From an uncultured Oscillospiraceae bacterium (GTDB taxonomy: Bacteria > Bacillota > Clostridia > Oscillospirales > Ruminococcaceae), in NCBI GenBank assembly GCA_964446385.1, contig CAYUOH010000013.1, forward strand, positions 1 to 55,182: a stretch of 55,182 nucleotides of DNA, read 5' to 3'. Positions 5,473-55,182 of the stretch are shown here, one piece after another; within the stretch, counting starts at the first letter, position 1; every line of letters starts with the position of its first letter. Below the pieces are notes generated by a model. The model had not been told where the DNA came from and ran no database searches. It saw only the letters and a list, made by a program, of their open reading frames with translations. The position numbers and the translations under genes were made by a program.

Positions 5473-5570
5473 GCAAATAAACTGAAGTCGACTATAACCG
5501 GAAATATCCATGAGCAAAATAAGACTTTCTGAAAATGACTTCAAAATCGTTGTTTCAAGGCGGTGATAAT

Positions 5571-6503
5571 ATGAATGAAATGAAGGAAGATTTAATCGCT
5601 CCATGCGGGATGAACTGCTCTTTATGCAGCGCTTATCAATTCGGAGAATATGATTTAAACAGACATGGGTTTCACAAAAAATACTGTTTAGGCTGCATTC
5701 CGAGGGGAGAAAACTGCACACATATGAGAGATGCGTGCGAATTGCTGGCAAAAGGTAGCATCCGTTTTTGTTATGAATGTAGAAGTTTCCCATGTAAAAG
5801 GCTGAAAGCATTGGATAAGCGATACTGCACGAAATACCATATGAGCATGATAGAAAACATCAACTACATCAAGGAATATGGAATTAAAAATTTCATAGAT
5901 AAGGAGCGTGACAAATGGCGCTGTCCGGAGTGCGGAGCGACCATATGCTGCCACAACGGACTATGTTTGAATTGTAATATAGATACGCTTATGACGAATA
6001 AAAAATACAGGTGGGAAACGGGTAAAAAACCGGAGACTGAAATTATGGAATCAACCAAGGAACAATTACTTAGAAATCCTGATACAGAGCCGACTAGCGA
6101 CGTTATTGCAGAGGCTCTTAAGGATGCAAATAACGTCTATATAAAGTTTATATCCGAACTTGCAAACCATGGTATTCAGATGGAATGGCGTTACTATAAC
6201 GACGGCAAGGCGTGGCTGGCAAAAGGACTTTATAAGTGGACAGGTGCAAGAGGAGGATATAAAGAAAATACTGTTTTTTGGTTATCGGTTTGGGACGGAT
6301 TTTTTAAAGTGGATATCTATTTCCCAGAAAAATCCCGTGCTGATGTATTGAGTCTACCGCTTGATCATAAGTTTAAACTTATTATAGCGGACTCAAAACA
6401 AATGGGGAAACTGAAATACTTCCCTCTTGTTTTTGAACTCTGTTCGGATGAAATGTTTAAGGCAGTTTTCCCACTTATTGATTTCAAGATAAGCTTAAAG
6501 TGA
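5571..6503 (+). CDS. DUF3795-like Cys-rich domain protein with a C-terminal extension
   Basis: Cys cluster CGMNCSLCSAY...CLGC...C..C..C matches the DUF3795 pattern and is shared with the 7405 paralog; AAGGCGG SD before the ATG at 5571. Confidence 0.6.
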   Translation: MNEMKEDLIAPCGMNCSLCSAYQFGEYDLNRHGFHKKYCLGCIPRGENCTHMRDACELLAKGSIRFCYECRSFPCKRLKALDKRYCTKYHMSMIENINYIKEYGIKNFIDKERDKWRCPECGATICCHNGLCLNCNIDTLMTNKKYRWETGKKPETEIMESTKEQLLRNPDTEPTSDVIAEALKDANNVYIKFISELANHGIQMEWRYYNDGKAWLAKGLYKWTGARGGYKENTVFWLSVWDGFFKVDIYFPEKSRADVLSLPLDHKFKLIIADSKQMGKLKYFPLVFELCSDEMFKAVFPLIDFKISLK

Positions 6504-6627
6504 TAGAATTGATTTAGAAGCTAAAAGAGTGAGAGCGGGAAAAACCAGTAAATTAATATTTCCATGTGCTCTATGTTTTGTTTCGTGATGGGATACCGGT
6601 TGTGGACAATGTAGTGAGGATAAAGAA

Positions 6628-7344
6628 ATGAAAAAATATCCGAGAACGGATAAATACGAAAAAAGTTGGATTAGTGAAAACTGGATGGGACCAAATCCGC
6701 TTTGGTTACTTGAGGAATTGTGCGAACACCTGGAATTAAAGCCAGGGATGAAGGTTCTTGACATGGGCTGCGGGAAAGGCATCACTTCAGTATTTCTAGC
6801 GAAAGAATTTGGCGTAACGGTATTTGCCAACGATCTGTGGATTGACCCGACGGAGAATTTTAAGCGCTTTGAGGAAGCCGGCGTAGCAGAATTGGTATTT
6901 CCTATCCATGCTGAAGCCCATACCCTCCCTTATGCAGAGGGTTTTTTTGATGTTGCAATATCAATAGACAGTTACCAATATTACGGAGCGGATGAACTGT
7001 ATTTTCCCTGTACATTTTCAAAGTTAGTAAAAAGCGGCGGTCAATTTGGCATCGTGGTTCCGGGTTTAAAGAAAGAATTTGAAAGAGGTTACCCTGATAC
7101 ACTTAAAAAACATTGGAATGGGGAGATGTTCAGCTTTCATAGCAAGAATTGGTGGCGTTTTCTTTGGGAAAAGACCGGAATTGCCGATATTATCGCATGT
7201 TATGATATTGAAGAACCTAAAGAATTATGGAAATCATGGGCAGAATGGGCAAAGGATAACCTCGGCTTTAACGATGTGGAATTTATAAATTCTGACAAAA
7301 ACGATGACATTGCTATTATTGTAATGAGTGCAATAAAAAAATAG
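6628..7344 (+). CDS. class I SAM-dependent methyltransferase
   Basis: Motif I VLDMGCGKG and downstream acidic motifs (FDVAISID) of Rossmann-fold methyltransferases. Confidence 0.75.
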   Translation: MKKYPRTDKYEKSWISENWMGPNPLWLLEELCEHLELKPGMKVLDMGCGKGITSVFLAKEFGVTVFANDLWIDPTENFKRFEEAGVAELVFPIHAEAHTLPYAEGFFDVAISIDSYQYYGADELYFPCTFSKLVKSGGQFGIVVPGLKKEFERGYPDTLKKHWNGEMFSFHSKNWWRFLWEKTGIADIIACYDIEEPKELWKSWAEWAKDNLGFNDVEFINSDKNDDIAIIVMSAIKK

Positions 7345-7404
7345 CCTGCTCCTCCGGAGTTATTTTTCAATATATATCATGACTATTTTTTACTGAGGTG
7401 AAAG

Positions 7405-7941
7405 ATGAAGAATTTCAACCGGCAAAATCCACTGTTTTCTCTTTGCGGTTTAAACTGCGGATTATGTTCTATGAAATTAGGCGGTTATTGTCCGGGGTGC
7501 GGACAGGGAAACAAGCCGTGCAAGGCTGCAAGATGCAGTATAGAGCATAATGTGGAATACTGTTTTCAATGCAATGAATACCCTTGCCCTATCTACGATC
7601 ATGCCGATGAATCTGATTCTTTTATAACGCACAGAAACCAAATGACTGATATGGAAAAGGCAAAACAAATCGGGATGGAAGCCTATAATGTAGAACAGAC
7701 GGAAAAAGTTGAGTTGTTGAATGTTTTACTATCGGAATATAATTCAGGCCGTGAAAAGACATTATATTGCCTTGCCGTAAATCTCCTTGAGGTTGATGAA
7801 ATTAAAAACGTACTGGAAAAAGGATCGGATTATTCTGAATTGACGGATATGTCCCTTAAAGAGAAAGCTGTCTATGTTTCAAATTATATACGTCAGTTAG
7901 CCCAAAAGAAAAATATAGAACTGAAACTTCGAAAGGTATAA
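7405..7941 (+). CDS. DUF3795-like Cys-rich domain protein (paralog of 5571-6503)
   Basis: LCGLNCGLCS...CPGC...C..C...CFQCNEYPC cysteine pattern parallels the upstream paralog. Confidence 0.6.
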   Translation: MKNFNRQNPLFSLCGLNCGLCSMKLGGYCPGCGQGNKPCKAARCSIEHNVEYCFQCNEYPCPIYDHADESDSFITHRNQMTDMEKAKQIGMEAYNVEQTEKVELLNVLLSEYNSGREKTLYCLAVNLLEVDEIKNVLEKGSDYSELTDMSLKEKAVYVSNYIRQLAQKKNIELKLRKV

Positions 7942-7985
7942 TTACTGTTTACTTAATATCTACTCGGCTCACAAGATGGCGAGCA

Positions 7986-8018
7986 CTAAACAAAGAAGGT
8001 GCCGGAATTAAATCCGGC
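7986..8018 (+). terminator. Rho-independent terminator
   Basis: 11-bp stem AAGGTGCCGGA/TCCGGCACCTT with a 6-nt loop, followed by a TTTTTT run. Confidence 0.7.
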
Positions 8019-8203
8019 ACCTTTTTTATATTCGAAATAAAGTCAGACGGGCACACTAGTGGAAAACAAATCTAATATATCGTGAATAATTATGATCATG
8101 CTGTTTTATAATTCTATATTTCAGTGTATTATTCTCAAGTAATCAACGTTATAATATATAGAATATATACTGCAATGATATTACCCGGGGATAGGTTATA
8201 AAC

Positions 8204-9610
8204 ATGGTTTTTAGCAGCATAACTTTTTTATTTTATTTTTTACCAGCATTATTCTTTTTATATTATCTGGCTCCCAAAAAGCTAAAAAACTTAATTATGA
8301 TAATCGGAAGCTTCGTGTTTTACGCATGGGGTGAAATAAGGTTTTTGCCGGTAATGCTGGCGTTGTCTGTCGAGGATTATATTTGCGGAAGACTTATGGA
8401 AAAAAACCGCGATAATGAAAAACGCAGGCGCCTGTTTATGCTGATATCGGTGATCAGCAATCTATCCGTATTGATTTTCTTTAAATATACAAATTTCTTT
8501 GTCGGTAATTTTTGTTCATTATTTGGAATTGAAAATATGGCGATCAATATAATACTCCCAATAGGAGTATCATTTAACTCATTTCAATCAATTTCTTATG
8601 CCATTGACGTATACAGGGGAACGACGAACTGCGAAAAAAGTTTCTATAATTACCTTACTTATACGACATTGTTTCCCCAGGTTATTGCCGGACCGATAGT
8701 TCGTTATGTAACGGTTGAAAACGATCTTGACGATCATAACATGACTGCTGACAGCCTTTCCCGCGGAATGCGCAGATTTATAATCGGCCTTGCAAAAAAG
8801 GTATTGATCGCGAATAATGTCGGCCTGCTTTGGAGCAATATATCATCAGGCGCTGCGGGTGAACCTTCCGTTTTACTGTACTGGCTTGGTATCACAGCCT
8901 ATTCCTTTCAGATATATTTTGATTTTTCGGGATATTCCGATATGGCAATCGGGCTTGCCCGTGTCTTCGGGCTTACTTTTGACGAAAACTTCAATTTCCC
9001 TTATATCGCAAAGAGTATAACCGAATTCTGGCGGCGCTGGCATATAACGTTAAGTTTATGGTTCCGCGACTATATATATATTCCGCTCGGTGGGAACCGC
9101 GTCTCGATAAAAAGACATATTCTTAATCTTCTTATTGTATGGGGGCTTACGGGTTTCTGGCACGGAGCTTCCTGGAATTTTGTCATATGGGGTCTGTATT
9201 TTGCGGTAATATTGATTTGCGAAAAATATTTTTTCATGAGTTTTCTGGAACGTTTACCGGCATTCCTTCGTCATATTTATACTATATTGCTTGTCATGAT
9301 AAGCTGGGTAATATTCTATTTTGAAGATATGGGCATGGTTATTGACTTTTTGAAGGGAATGTTCGGATTTAACGGGGTTCCCGCCCTTAACAGTCAATCG
9401 TTGTATTATTTGTTCGGTTACGGAATGATTTTTATTCTGGCGGCATATTTTTCCACCCCGCATTTCAGAAAAATAATCGATGCAACGGAAAAAAGCACAA
9501 GAAAATGGGTTTGGAGCGCGGCGACAGCGGTTTATATTTTAATATTCGTCTGCTGCATAGCTTATCTTGTAAACAGCACATATAATCCTTTTTTGTATTT
9601 CAGATTTTAG
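8204..9610 (+). CDS. MBOAT family membrane-bound O-acyltransferase (AlgI/DltB/PatA-like)
   Basis: Multi-TM protein with the FWRRWHITLSLWFRDYIYIPLGG motif containing the conserved MBOAT His; very AT-rich. Confidence 0.85.
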   Translation: MVFSSITFLFYFLPALFFLYYLAPKKLKNLIMIIGSFVFYAWGEIRFLPVMLALSVEDYICGRLMEKNRDNEKRRRLFMLISVISNLSVLIFFKYTNFFVGNFCSLFGIENMAINIILPIGVSFNSFQSISYAIDVYRGTTNCEKSFYNYLTYTTLFPQVIAGPIVRYVTVENDLDDHNMTADSLSRGMRRFIIGLAKKVLIANNVGLLWSNISSGAAGEPSVLLYWLGITAYSFQIYFDFSGYSDMAIGLARVFGLTFDENFNFPYIAKSITEFWRRWHITLSLWFRDYIYIPLGGNRVSIKRHILNLLIVWGLTGFWHGASWNFVIWGLYFAVILICEKYFFMSFLERLPAFLRHIYTILLVMISWVIFYFEDMGMVIDFLKGMFGFNGVPALNSQSLYYLFGYGMIFILAAYFSTPHFRKIIDATEKSTRKWVWSAATAVYILIFVCCIAYLVNSTYNPFLYFRF

Positions 9611-9620
9611 AGAGGCCTGC

Positions 9621-10748
9621 ATGAAAATTACCTTTAATAAAATATTCTTTTCGGTTTTTATATTGTTATGGTTTGCAGCCGTACTAATCAATATACTGAC
9701 TCCCTTTCGAAGTTACTCAGAAAACGAGAACAGATATTTTTCGAAAATCCCGGAATACAGCTTTGATACACTGATTAACGGGGAATTCATGAACAAGGTT
9801 AATGATTATGTAAATGACCAGTTTATCGCACGGGATAACTGGATAAGCGCCCAGAGCATGTTGGAATATTTCATCGGTAAACGTGAAAGCAATAACGTCT
9901 TTATATGCAAAGATTCTCTTATCGGTAAAATCGACGGACCCAATGAAGAATATATAAAGGATAATATAGCAGGCATATATGATTTTATTACTGCAACGGA
10001 AACGCCCGCAAGTCTTATGATAATCCCGGGCGCATCTGAAATACTGTCTCACAAACTTCCGTCGTTTGCCAGGGTTTGGGATCAGAAAGAGAAGATCGAT
10101 GAAATATATAATTCGATCAATTTCGCAAAATGTATTTCTGTCTATGAAACATTGTCAGATCACAAAGATGAGTATATCTATTACCGCACCGATCATCACT
10201 GGACGACATATGGCGCATACCTGGCATATACTGATTATTGCAATGCCTGTGGCTTAAGTCCGGCCGAATATGCCGCGGATAAAATAAGTAAGTCTTTTAA
10301 CGGCACTCTTTATTCGAGTTCCGGAGTAAGGTTTATTAATAGCGATACTATTGAAGCGTTTATCGTCGGATCCGATGCCTACTGCGATATTTTCGACGGA
10401 AATAATACACAACGATATGACAGCATATACTTCCCCGATTATCTTAATAAAAAGGATAAATACGCATATTTTCTGGGTACCAACCAGCCGGTTGTCACAG
10501 TATACGGAGATAATGTAAACGGACCCAGGCTGATTTTATTTAAAGATTCTTATGCTCATTGTATGGCACCGATGCTGCTTGAGCATTACAGTCAAATAAC
10601 TCTTGTCGATTTGCGGTATATTAACCGTCAGTTCGATTACTATTTTGACGTCAACGATTATGACGAAGCGTTGTTTTTATACAGTATTGATACTTTTGGC
10701 AATCAAAACGATATCAGTAAACTGAGCACCTATAAGAACGCGGATTGA
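9621..10748 (+). CDS. DHHW-motif family protein (AlgX/AlgJ/DltD-like partner of MBOAT)
   Basis: N-terminal signal-anchor, YRTDHHWTTYGAY (the DHHW signature); located immediately after the MBOAT gene. Confidence 0.75.
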   Translation: MKITFNKIFFSVFILLWFAAVLINILTPFRSYSENENRYFSKIPEYSFDTLINGEFMNKVNDYVNDQFIARDNWISAQSMLEYFIGKRESNNVFICKDSLIGKIDGPNEEYIKDNIAGIYDFITATETPASLMIIPGASEILSHKLPSFARVWDQKEKIDEIYNSINFAKCISVYETLSDHKDEYIYYRTDHHWTTYGAYLAYTDYCNACGLSPAEYAADKISKSFNGTLYSSSGVRFINSDTIEAFIVGSDAYCDIFDGNNTQRYDSIYFPDYLNKKDKYAYFLGTNQPVVTVYGDNVNGPRLILFKDSYAHCMAPMLLEHYSQITLVDLRYINRQFDYYFDVNDYDEALFLYSIDTFGNQNDISKLSTYKNAD

Positions 10749-10770
10749 CATTTATATTAGGAGGTTATTT

Positions 10771-11640
10771 ATGAGTACTCAATCAAAAAGGAACTTTTTC
10801 TATCGTGTTTTATGCGGTGCATTCATCGGTATCAGTATTATTGCGCCCGGTATAAGCGGAAGTATTATGGCGGTTATGATGGGAATATATGATGAACTTA
10901 TAGATATAATCTCAAATCCTTTCAGAAATTTTAAAAAAAATATCATTTACCTACTCCCCATGTGTATCGGTGCCGGATTAAGTATGGTTTTATGTCTTAA
11001 ATTGTTGAAATTCGTATTCGAATATTATCCTACGCCGGGATACCTGCTGTTTATAAGCCTGATTGCGGGCAGCTTCCCTGCAGTACTGCAGGAAGCAAAA
11101 GCAGACAAATTCAAAGTAAGATATATTTTCGGAGCGTTAATTGCCTTCGCATTTGCACTGACTATCGGTTTTCTGGCAAAGAACGATGTCGCTGTAACTG
11201 TTGATACGGCATCGGCAGGCAATACAGCAAGGATGGTATACCTATCTGCGAGCGGAGCTGTTGCGGGGATTGCAGGCATGATCCCGGGAATGAGCGTATC
11301 AATGATCCTTATGATGCTTAATGTGTATGAGCCTCTCCTTAATGCTGCCGCGGGATTTGATGTCATAACAATTTTTCCTGTCGGAATGTGCTTTGTAGTC
11401 GGAATGATCTTGTGTTCAAAACTTACTAAATTCATTTTTAGAAAATATCACGGCATCGGTTATTTTGCGGTTTTGGGTTTTATGTCAGGCTCGATTATAA
11501 GTATATTCCCCGGATTGCCAAACGGATTATTGGATTGGGTTCTGAGTATCATTGCTGTCGGTACCGGAATAGGTATTTCATATATATTTAAAATACTTGG
11601 TAAGAAAATCAATACAAGCAATAATTTACAAAATGAATAG
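10771..11640 (+). CDS. DUF368-like polytopic membrane protein (putative polyprenyl-phosphate translocase PopT-like)
   Basis: Two-repeat membrane protein with PGISGS and PGMSVS motifs in each half, consistent with the DUF368 family; assignment made from memory of the family motif. Confidence 0.5.
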   Translation: MSTQSKRNFFYRVLCGAFIGISIIAPGISGSIMAVMMGIYDELIDIISNPFRNFKKNIIYLLPMCIGAGLSMVLCLKLLKFVFEYYPTPGYLLFISLIAGSFPAVLQEAKADKFKVRYIFGALIAFAFALTIGFLAKNDVAVTVDTASAGNTARMVYLSASGAVAGIAGMIPGMSVSMILMMLNVYEPLLNAAAGFDVITIFPVGMCFVVGMILCSKLTKFIFRKYHGIGYFAVLGFMSGSIISIFPGLPNGLLDWVLSIIAVGTGIGISYIFKILGKKINTSNNLQNE

Positions 11641-11728
11641 TATGATCATTCGACTTTGACAGAAGGCTGGAGCAGACAGAATAGAAAGCAAACATACAGT
11701 ATATTGAAACATTGAAAGAAGAGAAAAC

Positions 11729-12283
11729 ATGGATGTAATTACAAATATAGATTTTTCTATATTGGATTTTATTTACACACATTTTTCATGCGAATTATTA
11801 GATTTTCTGATGCCGAGAATCACTTCTCTCGGTAATGCCGGTGTAATTTGGATATTGGCATCTTTAGTTTTAGTCTGCACAAAAAAATATAGAATGAACG
11901 GAGTTATAATGCTTATTAGTCTGAGTGTTGGTGCATTGGTGGGCAATATAATATTAAAGCCGCTAATCGCTCGTCCCCGTCCTTGCTGGATAAACGAAAC
12001 GATATCCTTGCTAATAAACATTCCAAGAGATTATTCATTTCCATCAGGACATACACTTTCATCAGTAATTGGGGCCGTTTCGTTTACTGTCGCTAACCGG
12101 AAATTCGGGCTTATTGCTATACCGCTTGCCGCTTTAATTGCATTTTCACGACTTTATCTTTATTTGCATTTTCCGAGCGATATTTTAGCTGGTATGGTGC
12201 TTGGCATAGTAATCGCGTACACGCTCTGGAAGATGCTTAACCCTCTATTAATAAAGCAGCAAACTGATAATTGCCCGAAATAA
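11729..12283 (+). CDS. PAP2 family phosphatase (undecaprenyl-diphosphatase-like)
   Basis: All three PAP2 motifs present: KPLIARPRP, PSGH, SRLYLYLHFPSD. Confidence 0.8.
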   Translation: MDVITNIDFSILDFIYTHFSCELLDFLMPRITSLGNAGVIWILASLVLVCTKKYRMNGVIMLISLSVGALVGNIILKPLIARPRPCWINETISLLINIPRDYSFPSGHTLSSVIGAVSFTVANRKFGLIAIPLAALIAFSRLYLYLHFPSDILAGMVLGIVIAYTLWKMLNPLLIKQQTDNCPK

Positions 12284-19595: not shown

Positions 19596-20081
19596 ATGAA
19601 AATATTGGTCCCTGTTGATGGTTCTTCCGCTTCTATTAATGCAGTTAAAAAGTCGATTAAGATAGCAAAGTATTATAATTTTTCAATAAAACTGATATCT
19701 GTTATTCAACCTGCAACCGCAAGAAGATATATGAGGAATGAAAGCCTCTGGCGTCAGACAGATGGATCAGCAATAACGGGTAGAAAAATGAAGTTTGATG
19801 ACGATGAATTCACTGGTAAAATGCAAGCAGAGGCAAACGAAATGTTGGATTCAATAATTTCTAAATTAAACTTTGAAGATGTTAAAGTTGAAAAAGAAAT
19901 ATTAGTGGGAGAGCCTCACGATAAAATTCTTGAAACAGCAGAAAATGAAAATTTTGATTTAATTATAATGAGCAACAGAGGATATTCTAGCATAAAAAAC
20001 TTCTTTTTAGGTTCTGTGGCACAAAGAGTAATTGCCGAGTCAAAGTGTCCTGTATTAATATTTCATTCCGATTTAGAATAA
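19596..20081 (+). CDS. universal stress protein UspA family
   Basis: MKILVPVDGSSAS...DLIIMSNRGYSSIKNFFLGSVAQRVIAESKCPVLIFH, the canonical Usp ATP-binding C-terminus; AT-rich. Confidence 0.85.
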   Translation: MKILVPVDGSSASINAVKKSIKIAKYYNFSIKLISVIQPATARRYMRNESLWRQTDGSAITGRKMKFDDDEFTGKMQAEANEMLDSIISKLNFEDVKVEKEILVGEPHDKILETAENENFDLIIMSNRGYSSIKNFFLGSVAQRVIAESKCPVLIFHSDLE

Positions 20082-51590: not shown

Positions 51591-52835
51591 ATGGATAGAC
51601 ATAAAAAGGTAGGTCTTGTTCTTACCGGAGGCGGTGCACGCGGTGCCTATCATATAGGTGTGTGGAAAGCTCTTCGCGAGCTTGACGTTCATTTCGATAT
51701 AGTCACCGGGACATCGGTAGGCGCACTTGCGGGCGGCGTAATATGCGGGGGAAACTACGAACTGGCTGAGCAGCTCTTTTCAAATATCAAAAACAGTGAC
51801 ATTATGGATCTTCCCGACAACATTGACGAGCTTGGCGGATTTGTCAAATTTGTTTCAAAATACGGAGGCGTTGATACCACGCCGCTTAAGAGTATGCTTG
51901 AAAGCATAATAAACGAGGATGATATCCGTGCCAGCAATCTTGGTTTGGGGATGGTTATTGTAAGCCGGGACGGCCTTTATCCCGCTGAGGTGACACTTGA
52001 TACAATCCCTAAAGGCGAGCTCATCACATATATGTTGGCTTCAGCATCGATTTTTCCTTTTTTCATGTCCCAGAAAATAGATGGCAAAATGTATGTAGAC
52101 GGCGGAGTGTTCGACAATCTTCCCATTGGACTTTGTGAGGATATGGGCGCCGAAGAAATTATTGCCGTTGATCTGGGGTCTGTGGGTATCGATAAGCCGT
52201 ACAGAGGAGGGCTTCCGGTGAGGACAATTTATCCGAGCTGGCCTCTCGGAAGTATAGTGCAGTTTAACTCTTTAACTGCAAGACGGAATATCAAACTGGG
52301 CTATTACGATACCATGAAGGCTTACAGAAAATTAGACGGAATCAAATATACTTTCGGAAAGGGCGAAATAGAAAGTGAAGCGGAAGGATGGGATGAATCC
52401 GTAATAAAGGACTGTATTTCTTCTCTGCCTGGAATTGCACGCAAGGCGGTGTTCACACTTTTATCGTTGGAATATGATGCGCACCGAAATAAACGCAGAA
52501 TGCTGCTGGCCGGTCTGGAAAACGCAGCAAGGGTATTTAATGTTGATCCTACCGAAGAATATACTCCGAAAAGACTGAAGAGTATTGTTCTGGAACTTTA
52601 CAGCAGCGCCGCTCCTTTAAATATACAAATTAAAAAGGAGAAAGTATCCGCTGATATCAGCGGCAGCGCCGCAGCAGTAACAATGTGCGGCATGCTTCGG
52701 GAAAACAGAAAGAAAAGAGAAATAGCTGTTATGGCTGCCGCTATGCCACGTGAATTTGCCGCCGCCGCTTACATTTATTCAATGCTCGGACCGTATCCCG
52801 CTCTTGAAGCCGGAAATGAACTGGCCAAAATATAG
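51591..52835 (+). CDS. patatin-like phospholipase family protein
   Basis: GGGARGAYHIG oxyanion motif, GTSVG nucleophile elbow, DGG catalytic Asp. Confidence 0.85.
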   Translation: MDRHKKVGLVLTGGGARGAYHIGVWKALRELDVHFDIVTGTSVGALAGGVICGGNYELAEQLFSNIKNSDIMDLPDNIDELGGFVKFVSKYGGVDTTPLKSMLESIINEDDIRASNLGLGMVIVSRDGLYPAEVTLDTIPKGELITYMLASASIFPFFMSQKIDGKMYVDGGVFDNLPIGLCEDMGAEEIIAVDLGSVGIDKPYRGGLPVRTIYPSWPLGSIVQFNSLTARRNIKLGYYDTMKAYRKLDGIKYTFGKGEIESEAEGWDESVIKDCISSLPGIARKAVFTLLSLEYDAHRNKRRMLLAGLENAARVFNVDPTEEYTPKRLKSIVLELYSSAAPLNIQIKKEKVSADISGSAAAVTMCGMLRENRKKREIAVMAAAMPREFAAAAYIYSMLGPYPALEAGNELAKI

Positions 52836-52849
52836 AACGATAATAAGCA

Positions 52850-52884
52850 GAATGGCCAGCGGTAATATTTACCGCCGGCCATTC
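52850..52884. terminator. 13-bp (one mismatch) hairpin between the convergent patatin and MBL/rbr-remnant transcripts
   Basis: GAATGGCCAGCGG, a 9-nt loop, CCGCCGGCCATTC. Confidence 0.45.
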
Positions 52885-52897
52885 TACGTAGTTATGA

Positions 52898-52963
52898 TTA
52901 TTTAAAATATCTTTCGAGTAAGCCTTTGAGGGCTTTGCCGTGACGAGCCTCATCACGGGCCAT
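52898..52963 (-). pseudogene. 21-codon remnant (or mini-ORF) identical at protein level to the rubrerythrin C-terminus: [21 protein letters not shown]
   Basis: Translation of the minus strand gives [20 protein letters not shown], matching the last 20 aa of the rbr gene at 53829 with about 14 synonymous nucleotide differences; a GAGG motif sits 4 nt upstream of its ATG; it starts 12 nt after the MBL stop, in a different frame. Confidence 0.5.
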
Positions 52964-52974
52964 CTTGCCTCGGC

Positions 52975-53700
52975 TTATACAACATAGGTAAAATCATCCA
53001 TTGCCCGGACGGCCGGCAGACCTCTGGCGTTCAGCTCTGCACACAGCGTCAGAACACTGGGCAGAAACTCGTCGGAATAATGGGTCACGCAGACATTGCG
53101 AATGTTGCACTGCTCAAAAACCGGCAGATAACTGGTAGCCTCAAAGTGGGCCGCTTCGCACACAATCAGATCAAGCGGCAATTCCATGGCAGGCGCAGGA
53201 AAGTCAACGCTCGGGTGCTTGAGATCTCCGGTGAAGAGTACCGTTTTCCCCTCCGCTTCCACGATATAGGAAAAGGACTTGTGACAATGCATCGTTGCGA
53301 CAGCGGTCACTCTGAGTACACCATCGTCAAACACCGTGCCGGGTTGGGTTTCACGGTAGTGGATTTCCTTCTTTGCAACATTCAGGGTGACTGCCAGCCA
53401 GTCCCGGATGACCTGGCCGGCTTCCGGTATGGGAAGGCAAATGACCGGATCCGGTGTTCTGAAGTACCATGTGATCAGGTCCACGAATTGAATCAGACCG
53501 TTGGTATGGTCACCGTGCATATGGGTGATAAAGACGCCCTTCACCGCATCAACCGAGATATTTCGGGTACGCAGCGCATCGATGGCAGAGGTCCCCATAT
53601 CGATAAAATAGACGTTCCCGCCGGTCTCAAGCATGATGCATGAGCATTTGCGGTGAGGTTCCGGTACGCTATGGCTGCTGCCGATAAATGTGAGTTTCAT
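52975..53700 (-). CDS. MBL-fold metallo-hydrolase
   Basis: HMHGDHTNGL (HxHxDH) and downstream His/Asp ligands. Confidence 0.8.
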   Translation of the reverse strand: MKLTFIGSSHSVPEPHRKCSCIMLETGGNVYFIDMGTSAIDALRTRNISVDAVKGVFITHMHGDHTNGLIQFVDLITWYFRTPDPVICLPIPEAGQVIRDWLAVTLNVAKKEIHYRETQPGTVFDDGVLRVTAVATMHCHKSFSYIVEAEGKTVLFTGDLKHPSVDFPAPAMELPLDLIVCEAAHFEATSYLPVFEQCNIRNVCVTHYSDEFLPSVLTLCAELNARGLPAVRAMDDFTYVV

Positions 53701-53780
53701 ATTGCACCGCTCTTTTCTGTTTGTTCTGATAAATTTAGTTTAGGTTCTGCGGGGACGGATGTCAAGAAATCCGTGGACAG

Positions 53781-53814
53781 AAAAAGGTCAGCCCCTTGCG
53801 GGACTGACCTTTTG
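53781..53814. terminator. bidirectional Rho-independent terminator downstream of rbr
   Basis: AAAAA-GGTCAGCCCC-ttgc-GGGACTGACC-TTTT (9 of 10 bp stem). Confidence 0.6.
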
Positions 53815-53828
53815 AAATCACAGAACAA

Positions 53829-54413
53829 TTAGCCGAAGTAACGCTCCAGCAGACCCTTCAGAGCCTTGCCGTGACGGGCCTCGTCGCGGGCCATCTCATG
53901 AACCGTATCATGTATGGCGTCAAGGCCGTTCTTCTTGGCACAGGATGCCAGCTCGAATTTGCCGGCAGTTGCGCCGAATTCACAGTCAACGCGCCATGCA
54001 AGATTCTTCGCGGTGCTATCGGTCATATTGGGCTCAAGGTCTTTGCCCAGAAGCTCGGCAAACTTGGCAGCATGCTCAGCCTCTTCATAGGCGGCTTTTT
54101 CCCAGTAAAGGCCGATTTCGGGATATCCTTGGCGGTGAGCAATACGTGCCATGCAGAGATACATTCCTACTTCGCTGCACTCACCCTGGAAGTTAGCTTT
54201 CAGTTGTTCAAGGATATACTTCTTATCCTCTTCGCTGACATTAACGTTATCCTTGACGGTTTTGGCAAATACGCCGTATTCATGCTCTGCGGCAAGCTTT
54301 TGTTCACCCTTTACCTCCTCGAACATGGAAGAGGGTGCTCCACACTGGGGGCATTTCTCGGGGGGTTCGGGTCCTTCATAAATGTAACCGCAAACTTTGC
54401 ATACATACTTCAT
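53829..54413 (-). CDS. rbr: reverse rubrerythrin (N-terminal rubredoxin-like domain plus ferritin-like di-iron domain)
   Basis: [14 protein letters not shown]...CPQCGA is a rubredoxin CxxC pair, followed by E..EH di-iron motifs ([19 protein letters not shown]); AGAGG SD before the ATG at 54413 (the ORF-track start at 54506 adds an unlikely 31 aa). Confidence 0.85.
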
Positions 54414-54487: not shown

Positions 54488-55182
54488 TTACGCTTTTCCG
54501 GCGCATCCAAGTACATCAACAAGCTTGTGACGTACAAGTTCCTTGATGTTGCTGCGGGCAGGTTTCAGGTATTCACGGGGATCAAACTTGTCAGGATTCT
54601 CAGCCATGAACTTGCGGATGGTGCCGGTCATTGCAAGACGCAGGTCGCTGTCGATATTGATCTTGCAGACGGAAAGTTCTGCGGCGTGACGAAGCTCATA
54701 CTCAGGGATGCCGATGGCGTCCGGCATTTTTCCGCCGAATTGATTGACCATTTTTACATATTCCTGGGGGACGGAGGAAGAGCCGTGCAGAACAATGGGG
54801 AATCCGGGCAGAAGGCGGGATACTTCTTCAAGAATGTCGAAACGGAGGGAAGGGGGAACAAGTATGCCCTTCTCATTACGTGTGCACTGATCCGGGGTGA
54901 ACTTGTATGCGCCGTGGCTTGTGCCGATGGCGATCGCAAGACTGTCACATCCGGTCTTGGAAACGAATTCCTCAACCTCTTCGGGACGTGTGTAGCTGGA
55001 AGCCTCGGCGGAAACCTTTACGTCGTCCTCAACGCCGGCAAGGGAACCGAGCTCTGCCTCGACAACAGCGCCGTGATCATGAGCGTACTCGACAACACGC
55101 TTGGTTTCGATGATGTTTTTCTCGAAAGGAAGAGAGGAGGCATCGATCATAACGGAGGTGAATCCGCCGTCGATGCAGCTCT
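54488..55182 (-). CDS. fba: class II fructose-/tagatose-bisphosphate aldolase (3' part; N-terminus lies beyond the window end)
   Basis: [22 protein letters not shown] and VLHGSSS motifs of class II aldolases; the frame stays open to the window edge. Confidence 0.85.

Follow-up and report, generated by a model that had tools for sequence, protein, structure and literature searches.

The 3′ end of the reverse rubrerythrin gene rbr is present twice in the 55,182-nucleotide stretch of DNA that was analysed here, referred to as the window, and the second copy is most probably (we put the probability at about 0.75-0.8) the displaced native end of rbr, left behind when inserted DNA supplied a replacement end. 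Codons 174-194 of rbr (53829-53894, minus strand) recur at 52898-52963, beginning 11 nt past the stop codon of an MBL-fold hydrolase gene and with a strong hairpin just downstream; an earlier note on this DNA had reported an rbr tail repeated between the MBL stop and a hairpin, and its coordinates and content are correct. The fear that the match would vanish on careful realignment proved groundless, since a tblastn search with the 21-mer finds only two matching places in the window, with E ~1e-10, and the match between the two copies is not due to chance. Identity between the copies begins 2 nt 5′ of the ATG, and outside the repeat they show no similarity (8/30 upstream and 6/40 downstream). 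Two runs, AGATGGCCCG and CGTCACGGCAA, are common to both copies. The longest identical run is CGTCACGGCAA, located at 53866..53876 in copy 1 and at 52935..52945 in copy 2, where it is the counterpart of the candidate crossover run (both on the minus strand). The two copies are spaced 931 bp apart.

The rbr gene (53829..54413, minus strand), recognized by its open reading frame and by Pfam, is intact and encodes 194 amino acids, with a RUBY_RBDX domain at residues 3-32 and a Rubrerythrin domain at residues 69-129; its nearest homologues are 99-100% identical and the next ones 86-92%. The 194-aa frame, both domains, and a common natural C-terminus are kept whole through the gene-proximal copy of the repeat. 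This GC-rich, attL-like copy 1 (53829..53896, minus strand) comprises codons 174-194, the stop codon, and 2 nt upstream, and its 3′ part at least probably came with the incoming module. It is followed by terminator hairpin T1, with a 14-bp stem and then a T-rich stretch (53782..53813, minus strand; −31.3 kcal/mol, z = −6.1), a promoter-like site of the MBL gene consisting of TTGACA, 17 nt, and TAAACT (53737..53765, minus strand), and the complete MBL-fold hydrolase gene of 241 aa (52975..53700, minus strand), the putative cargo of the insert. An 11-nt spacer, GCCGAGGCAAG (52964..52974, minus strand), which carries GAGG at 52968-52971, separates the fragment's ATG from the stop codon of the MBL gene and would hold the right-hand junction. 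The attR-like copy 2 (52898..52965, minus strand) consists of 21 codons and a stop, with a host-typical GC3 of 9/20, and is followed by terminator hairpin T2, with a 19-bp stem (52847..52887; −34.6 kcal/mol, z = −10). T2 is common to the minus-strand unit and a convergent patatin-like phospholipase gene (51591..52835, plus strand), which forms the right-hand flank and belongs to the host context. T2 is probably the original rbr terminator; its similarity to the rbr terminator of a sister-species contig, L105, is only marginal, as 10 of 500 shuffles score equally well. No credible Rfam family was found across the region.

The first 20 codons of the two copies encode the same residues (20/20) while sharing 44 of 60 nucleotides, and the 16 base differences, spread over 14 of these codons, are all synonymous. 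In codon 21, the copies have no base in common, with GGC (Gly) in one and AAA (Lys) in the other. Thus, the earlier description of the copies as identical in amino acid sequence with about 14 synonymous differences was right about the synonymous nature of the changes, and it needs amendment as to their number, 16 bases in 14 codons, and as to the last residue, which is Gly in one copy and Lys in the other. Under random substitutions, the probability that all 16 differences would be synonymous is ~1.6e-10, and none of 200,000 simulations produced this outcome, indicating that each copy evolved as part of a functional rbr gene, and in a different lineage from the other. The view that copy 2 is not a recent duplicate is therefore borne out, with divergence under purifying selection and a different functional rbr lineage as the source. 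The two amino acid variants correspond to the two commonest natural C-termini of Rbr, found in 17/115 and 12/115 related rubrerythrins, respectively; the sequence of copy 2 is the exact natural C-terminus in the latter 12. Copy 2 is thus a complete, true rbr C-terminus, with its own ATG and GAGG 4 nt upstream, as had been claimed. Moreover, GC3 is 16/20 in the in-gene copy 1 and 9/20 in the displaced copy 2.

Purely synonymous divergence would also be shown by two functional paralogs, and the earlier note had accordingly proposed two tandem reverse-rubrerythrin genes, the second of which lost its body by deletion or by overwriting with the MBL gene so that only its last 21 codons were left. 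Tandem revRbr genes are reported in Clostridium acetobutylicum, and one sister-species variant (L110) has, 34 nt after rbr, a gene that starts MKYTCDVCGYVYDSDE and is rubredoxin-like over the 16 codons visible. Nevertheless, this explanation seems very improbable. Neither tblastn nor local DNA alignment picks up any trace of an rbr body, whether between the copies or in the remainder of the window, and the gap is exactly filled by T1, the promoter, and the MBL gene; the last of these is of full length, has a conserved promoter of its own, and stops 11 nt short of the fragment. With its VYD motif, the gene start in L110 looks more like a plain rubredoxin than like revRbr (VYEGPEPP). An intact rbr-rbr tandem was looked for in relatives, and L105 and L106, contigs of the sister species, which is the nearest with a long enough rbr contig, carry a single rbr followed by a terminator. 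In addition, a lost paralog leaves unexplained the body-less rbr ends that are carried by phages and by contig L016, both described below. The sharp end swaps between strains and the phage-borne body-less ends are consistent instead with an insertion with a replacement 3′ end, by which the native end was displaced.

The strain swaps are seen in the sister species, whose contigs (L105/L106, L109, and L110) are ~99.5% identical over shared stretches up to CGTCACGGCAA, that is, up to rbr codon 183, beyond which they part into three different ends, and the DNA downstream differs as well. Two of these variants, L109 and L110, break at the same nucleotide, right after CGTCACGGCAA. Other pairs of Rbr, such as P0165/P0185, likewise combine identical bodies with different ends. 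Because the strain variants diverge immediately after this run, CGTCACGGCAA may be regarded as a candidate crossover region. In the window's own species, contigs differ from one another by just 0.05-0.4%. One of them, contig L001 from Logan SRR8925725, is 99.95% identical over 3.77 kb with the same arrangement and possibly derives from the window's own reads. No MBL-free contig of this species was found, and L001, L107, and L108 match the occupied form over the parts that they cover. Gene order downstream is not conserved between the window and the sister species, and a scan of genome contigs starting from the patatin gene gave relatives of at most 40% identity without synteny.

The MBL gene stands out in composition from the rest of the window, its GC3 of 0.618 being the top value among the 44 ORFs of at least 150 aa (mean 0.471, sd 0.071). 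It passes only the generic families Lactamase_B and Lactamase_B_2. Assignment as RNase Z was rejected (TIGR02651, 90 bits versus a cut-off of 293), as was assignment as the anti-Pycsar protein Apyc1 (PF23023, 21.7 bits versus a cut-off of 50). Homologues of the gene in unrelated contexts have a promoter-like site at the same position, in which TTGAC[A/G] and 17 nt are followed by TAAACT in L111 and L112, TAATAT in L113, and TATAAT in L016. The nearest homologue, 80% identical, is that of L016. Ahead of it stands a solitary rbr end of 22 codons, which opens with the same Met codon as copy 2 and gives way to a terminator and the promoter; local alignment found no rbr body upstream of this end. 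Contig L113 has, after rbr, an inserted ORF, a remnant of ~18 nt encoding KRYFG and a stop, and then a terminator, with an MBL homologue 2.6 kb downstream. Homologues at 73-79% identity (L017-L024, L111, and L112) have no rbr nearby, indicating that the pair of rbr end and MBL gene is not a general unit. Other homologues reside in ordinary, varied chromosomal contexts without rbr ends. A metagenome scan with the MBL alignment yielded relatives of at most 57% identity, none with an rbr end, and the gene was not found in plasmid and phage collections. The non-coding flanks of the window, L016, L109, L110, and L113 show no mutual similarity.

Body-less rbr ends also occur in two phage lineages. 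Contigs L122-L124 and L126, with tape measure and endolysin genes, and contigs L125/L144, with Sak-like and replication genes, contain only rbr residues ~163-194 and the stop, and a tyrosine integrase (PF00589) in divergent orientation is found 125-160 nt away from each segment. Between the two lineages, the integrases are 38% identical, and that of L125 has no match among GenBank phages. Further viral scans added just more contigs of the same two types. GenBank records named Bacteriophage sp. that have the rbr end all hold full-length rbr and are uninformative on attP. Judged from these sequence arrangements, temperate phages that encode tyrosine integrases use the rbr 3′ end for attachment in related gut Clostridia. 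In the literature, we found no paper that links rubrerythrin to an att site or names rbr as a target gene.

Collectively, these data can be combined into a displacement of the native rbr end. The locus would have started with a single rbr gene whose end was copy 2, in a native form ending with AGCCCTCAAAGGCTTACTCGAAAGATATTTTAAATAA and leading directly into T2. A foreign module of ~0.93 kb, comprising an rbr 3′ end, T1, the promoter, and the MBL gene, would then have recombined into the last rbr helix, within codons 174-183. The module's own rbr end would now close the rbr reading frame in the fashion of attL, and the resident end would have been moved ~0.9 kb downstream, past the MBL gene and still before T2, in the fashion of attR. 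This order of events is consistent with a direct repeat of 66-68 nt that flanks a 931-bp insert while rbr is intact, with the position of copy 2 (GC3 9/20) next to the host terminator and the convergent gene, and with the atypical GC3 of the MBL gene. Copy 2 would accordingly be the native copy, and the crossover may have taken place either at CGTCACGGCAA or at the 10-mer at the Met codon.

As to the route, we lean slightly towards site-specific recombination mediated by an integrase, which would have taken part in this particular insertion. The unit, now without an integrase, could be either a decayed element flanked by att sites, such as a CIME-like remnant of a prophage or island, or a small cargo that was moved in trans. 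The 931 bp contain no integrase or mobility gene, and tblastn with three phage integrases found no homologue in the window. Against this route, the identical runs are just 10-11 nt long, and the candidate overlap differs between the copies at one base. The later start of copy 2 relative to the phage attP sites, the shortness of the L113 remnant, the varied chromosomal settings of other MBL homologues, the recovery of only two phage lineages, and the failure to find the MBL family on phages or plasmids or an empty site in this species also weigh against it. The native end could likewise have been displaced without an integrase if donor DNA with the order rbr-T1-promoter-MBL was taken up from another species of Clostridia, with the left crossover in conserved rbr and the right joint formed illegitimately between the DNA directly behind the MBL stop and the beginning of the resident rbr end, so that both junction positions would be accidental. 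Such homology-facilitated illegitimate recombination, combining one homologous anchor with one illegitimate joint, is known in transformable bacteria, and conserved rbr, which is 80-90% identical across many Clostridia, could be a ready anchor for the foreign DNA gained here. The lack of an integrase in the insert, the occurrence of the MBL gene with its own promoter in many unrelated contexts, and the different left boundary of the L113 remnant are all in line with such an accident, and crossovers beside heterology are expected in the last well-conserved block. We nonetheless consider this route unlikely. It leaves unexplained why the isolated L016 end starts at the same Met codon and why the break falls on one and the same nucleotide in two independent variants of the sister species, and neither such recurrent junctions nor phages that bear integrases together with exactly this rbr segment belong to the known process. 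The rbr body, moreover, shows no mosaic block or breakpoint relative to L105, with identity remaining flat at 0.77-0.90 along the gene.

The displaced end forms an intact 21-codon ORF with ATG, GAGG 4 nt upstream, and a stop, inside the MBL transcript and upstream of T2, and a similar intact 22-codon ORF is present in L016. These features could be taken to mean that the ORF has been kept as useful, as a micro-peptide coupled to MBL translation or as a 3′-UTR element, which we regard as extremely unlikely. The SD-like GAGG is only a short 4 nt away from the ATG, and a young scar would be intact anyway, given the small differences among same-species contigs. In L124, the phage-borne copy is interrupted by an in-frame stop, the ORF is absent from MBL homologues at 100+ other loci, and it has no match to an Rfam family. 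Furthermore, a lone helix of a four-helix bundle would be unlikely to fold or to bind iron. The 21-codon ORF is probably merely the 3′ UTR of the MBL transcript, and we assume that it has no function of its own.

The exchange of a gene end has a known precedent in the rhs and cdiA genes. There, a module that enters recombines at a conserved motif close to the gene 3′ end, and the old end is left as an orphan; the swapped end is the functional, diversifying part, consisting of the toxin tip and an immunity gene. At rbr, a new end is likewise supplied, an old body-less end lies downstream, and strains share bodies and differ in ends. Unlike in rhs and cdiA, both ends encode the same 20 residues, so that the end swap at rbr appears to be a by-product of cargo insertion. 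A diversity-generating retroelement was also considered and rejected, since the differences between the copies are of all base types, are not adenine-specific, and are all synonymous.

A closer parallel is offered by prophages, ICEs, and IMEs that integrate into gene 3′ ends; in streptococci, the genes entered in this way by ICEs and IMEs include fda, rpmG, rpsI, and rplL (PMC7563491). As with such elements, the insert is bordered on both sides by the target's 3′ end as a direct repeat, the reading frame of the target is kept intact by the element copy, the native end stands before the old terminator, and integrase-bearing phages carry exactly this rbr segment. The likeness is incomplete in that the insert of 931 bp holds one cargo gene and no integrase or other element gene, and in that the repeat starts later than in the phage attP sites, copy 2 beginning at Met174, 10-11 codons after the start of the homology there. 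CIMEs are decayed derivatives of ICEs and IMEs that have kept att sites and cargo and have lost recombination and transfer genes, and they are described in two size classes, classical CIMEs of 1.2-13 kb and microCIMEs of 130-220 bp (PMC7563491). The unit at rbr resembles them in being flanked by att-like repeats, in having cargo, with MBL as its only gene, and no integrase, and in its location at the 3′ end of a housekeeping gene. It differs in its size of 0.93 kb, which falls between the two classes, and in that no parent ICE, IME, or prophage was identified, the integrase-bearing elements at the rbr site being phages and not conjugative elements. Most likely, the locus is an ordinary kind of insertion scar in a target gene for which no published report was found.

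On this reading, an odd duplicate becomes a readable record of horizontal gene gain that marks the entry point of a foreign gene, and the essential oxidative-stress gene rbr would have been kept intact through the gain. In uncultured gut Clostridia, the rbr 3′ end is thereby singled out as a hot spot of recombination and as a site of phage attachment. For annotation, body-less rbr ends should be expected as att scars rather than as pseudogenes or micro-genes, and the rbr end could be a landmark for prophages and islands in such MAGs. Site-specific engineering of such anaerobes might draw on the phage integrases as candidate tools. No principle of how integration works is changed.

A broader, rather doubtful extension is that the rbr 3′ end is a site of cassette exchange in gut Clostridia, at which integrase-less modules of an rbr end plus cargo, the MBL unit among them, would be inserted, stacked, and swapped. 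The tyrosine integrases of rbr-targeting phages would then act in trans, in a manner loosely similar to integrons or CIMEs. If true, cassette exchange would account for three different ends on an identical rbr body in one species and for the fact that two unrelated genomes have body-less rbr ends beginning with the same Met codon.

Except for a convergent patatin-like gene on the plus strand (51591-52835), all listed features of the rbr-MBL locus lie on the minus strand. Read along that strand, they comprise a class-II fructose-bisphosphate aldolase gene (54488-55150+, incomplete at the contig edge), rbr (53829-54413; its 194 aa comprise an N-terminal rubredoxin-like and a rubrerythrin domain), the hairpin T1 (53782-53813, -31.3 kcal/mol), a promoter-like site TTGACA-17-TAAACT (53737-53765), a complete MBL-fold hydrolase gene (52975-53700, 241 aa), an 11-nt spacer, a 21-codon ORF (52898-52963), and the hairpin T2 (52847-52887, 19-bp stem, -34.6 kcal/mol).

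The repeat of the rbr end downstream of the MBL gene was confirmed over 20 codons identical in protein, with T2 following. The earlier note had counted about 14 synonymous sites in an identical protein; within the 20 codons all differences are indeed synonymous, but they amount to 16 bases in 14 codons, and codon 21 of the fragment is completely different from the last rbr codon. Identity between copy 1, the end inside the intact rbr, and copy 2, the downstream end 931 bp away, starts 2 nt 5′ of the ATG and the flanks are unrelated; the longest runs common to both are CGTCACGGCAA and AGATGGCCCG, and no further rbr-like sequence was found in the window. The probability that all 16 changes are synonymous under random substitution is ~1.6e-10, and therefore the copies diverged while each resided in a working rbr gene, which bears out the claim that the repeat is not a recent copy. 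Nor is the repeat a chance match or the product of recent internal duplication. Both ends correspond to the two commonest natural C-termini among 115 related rubrerythrins, ...GLLERYFG (17/115) and ...GLLERYFK (12/115); thus the fragment, which has a stop of its own, is a full and typical Rbr C-terminus, not a truncated piece whose frame is accidental. The same arrangement is present in a second assembly, 99.95% identical, which may derive from the window's own reads.

With a probability of roughly 0.75-0.8, the fragment is the native rbr end, displaced by an insertion that brought a replacement for it. A foreign module would have integrated at the rbr end, copy 1 representing attL and copy 2 attR; integration at such an att site yields the order found in the window, namely rbr body, copy 1, cargo, copy 2, and the old terminator. 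The fragment had been read instead as the tail of a second rbr paralog whose body was deleted or replaced by the MBL gene. The window holds no trace of a second body, and this reading is not needed; what survives of it is a foreign-versus-native pair of rbr ends that is not a recent copy, with an insertion scar in place of paralog decay as the mechanism.

The window has a mean GC of 44% and an ORF GC3 of 0.471 +/- 0.071. Among its 44 long ORFs, the MBL gene ranks first in GC3 (0.618), and GC3 is 16/20 in copy 1 and 9/20 in copy 2, which adjoins the host terminator. These values suggest joint arrival of the MBL gene and the current rbr end, with the downstream copy as the resident one, although the argument is supportive only because the aldolase gene is likewise GC3-rich. 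The most atypical composition in the window belongs to a universal stress protein gene (19596-20081; GC 0.325, GC3 0.255). A run of seven same-strand ORFs at 5535-12283 has a low GC of 0.37-0.40, compared to the mean of 0.44, and may represent a cell-envelope modification island; among the products are DUF3788/DUF3795, a methyltransferase, an MBOAT acyltransferase together with a DHHW protein, a PAP2 phosphatase, and a VCA0040-like protein.

Two same-species contigs, L107 and L108, share 99.6% identity with the window and match it over the parts covered. The rbr-MBL order recurs in L108, where the MBL gene is directly downstream of rbr. The sister-species contigs L105 and L106, at 83% identity to the window over the aldolase gene plus rbr, have a single rbr, whose end LKGFLDRLFK is followed by a terminator and, in L105, also by a convergent membrane gene. 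No empty, MBL-free site was found among the same-species contigs. Together with L109 and L110, the sister-species contigs represent four samples of one study and are mutually ~99.5% identical over common stretches, up to ...GCCCGTCACGGCAA in rbr codon 183. Past this codon they split abruptly (L105:5441-5720, L106:1100-1353, L109:2388-2568, and L110:1367-1591) into three rbr C-termini with different downstream DNA: L110 has its own 10-residue end and then a gene with a rubredoxin-like start, and L109 has FAGLLKRYF and then a ribosome-binding site that belongs to another gene. Similarity between L109 and L105 is also lost upstream of L109:1539, within the aldolase gene. Identical bodies with different ends are found in other database Rbr pairs as well, such as P0165/P0185, and therefore the last rbr helix is a recurrent recombination junction, at which each downstream module supplies its own version of the rbr end. 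The sister-species junction points to a candidate crossover consisting of CGTCACGGCAA and the preceding GAGGC, flanked by CCGTGA / TCACGG, a short inverted repeat that forms part of the R-D-E-A-R-H codons. In another contig (L120:1-2375), the end of an rbr gene is followed by an opposite-strand, apparently frameshifted transposase gene (two overlapping ORFs, 290 + 292 aa), another sign of variable DNA downstream of rbr.

A scan of IMG/VR with Rbr recovered contigs matching only Rbr residues ~163-194. The first phage type (L122-L124 and L126) carries a tape-measure protein, tail proteins, and an endolysin, and the second (L125/L144) carries a Sak-like annealing protein and a replication initiator. 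In both types, an opposite-strand tyrosine integrase gene lies 125-160 nt upstream of a body-less rbr end (around 3840-4096 in L122, L123, L124, and L126; L125:2607-4099, equal to L144:6817-8309). The two integrases share 38% identity, and each has PF00589 as well as a SAM-like domain at its N-terminus. In the first type, inspection of the spacer sequence showed two direct ATTGTCACT repeats, as expected of arm-type sites. This is the classical layout, in which an integrase adjoins an att site containing the target gene's 3′ end. An integrase beside a body-less rbr end in phages thus makes the rbr end a real attachment site in this bacterial group, for which no report was found in the literature. 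A further viral contig (L121:2-1811) starts within an rbr gene that has 55% identity to the window Rbr, with a 406-aa protein bearing a phage-integrase SAM-like domain ~365 nt past the rbr end and then a dnaN-like gene; it may be one more element integrated at an rbr 3′ end, the host being more distant. Several IMG/VR contigs and GenBank 'Bacteriophage sp.' records (L114-L119 and L138-L142) contain rubrerythrin genes of full length, with 52-65% identity to that of the window. The genes lie mid-contig, in contigs of up to 66 kb, and represent either phage-borne rbr or host DNA in proviral contigs.

The MBL family is common in uncultured Clostridia (777 matches, many 60-80% identical) and was not found on phages or plasmids in the collections searched. 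Its gene contexts vary, and a TTGAC[A/G]-17 promoter-like site, with TAAACT, TAATAT, or TATAAT as the second hexamer, is always at the same upstream position. In L016, which holds the closest homologue (80% identical), the MBL gene is preceded by an isolated 22-codon rbr-end ORF, MVRDEARHGRAFEGLLKRYFGK (L016:238-306), and then a terminator and promoter. The rbr similarity begins at the Met codon with which the window fragment also starts, and no rbr body precedes it in this contig, which ends 237 nt upstream. In L113, whose MBL protein clusters at 90% with that of L016, rbr lies 2.6 kb upstream of the MBL gene and is followed (L113:363-790) by an inserted 103-aa ORF without a Pfam match, AAGAGATACTTCGGCTAA (KRYFG-stop), and a hairpin terminator. 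Genes for an HTH protein and an N-acetyltransferase and then the MBL homologue come next, within 2.6 kb. The KRYFG-stop looks like a second, shorter displaced rbr end, for which a rough estimate of the chance probability is ~1e-3 or less. No rbr end was found near MBL homologues at 73-79% identity (L017-L024, L111, and L112), and therefore the pairing of end and MBL gene is not a fixed unit. Precomputed Pfam tables give Anti-Pycsar Apyc1 (PF23023) for the whole family; in a direct scan of the window protein the match is weak (21.7 bits versus a cut-off of 50, residues 25-73 only), and for the NCBI name 'ribonuclease Z' the score likewise falls far short (90 bits versus a family cut-off of 293).

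As for the route of insertion, we lean slightly towards an integrase. Neither an integrase in the 931-bp insert nor a homologue of phage integrases anywhere in the window was found, and therefore the element has decayed or was never autonomous. The best-fitting published category is the CIME, likewise att-flanked, cargo-bearing, and without recombination genes; in streptococci, CIMEs occur at the 3′ ends of fda, rpmG, rpsI, and rplL (PMC7563491). The att reading is weakened by the start of the window repeat at Met174, compared to residue 163/164 in the phages, by the MBL family not having been found on phages or plasmids, and by the lack of a same-species empty site among the contigs. The main rival, illegitimate recombination anchored by homology in the conserved rbr, would yield the same end product. 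We consider it less likely; the Met174 boundary common to L016, and the fact that two sister-species variants break at an identical point, are explained less well by it.

Translation of the 21-codon ORF as a micro-peptide is a remote possibility. Transcription of the fragment within the MBL 3′ UTR is probable, and GAGG stands 4 nt 5′ of its ATG. However, an intact frame is expected of a young scar, no MBL locus other than L016 keeps such an ORF, and the rbr-end copy of the phage contig L124 tolerates an in-frame stop codon (TTA to TAA).
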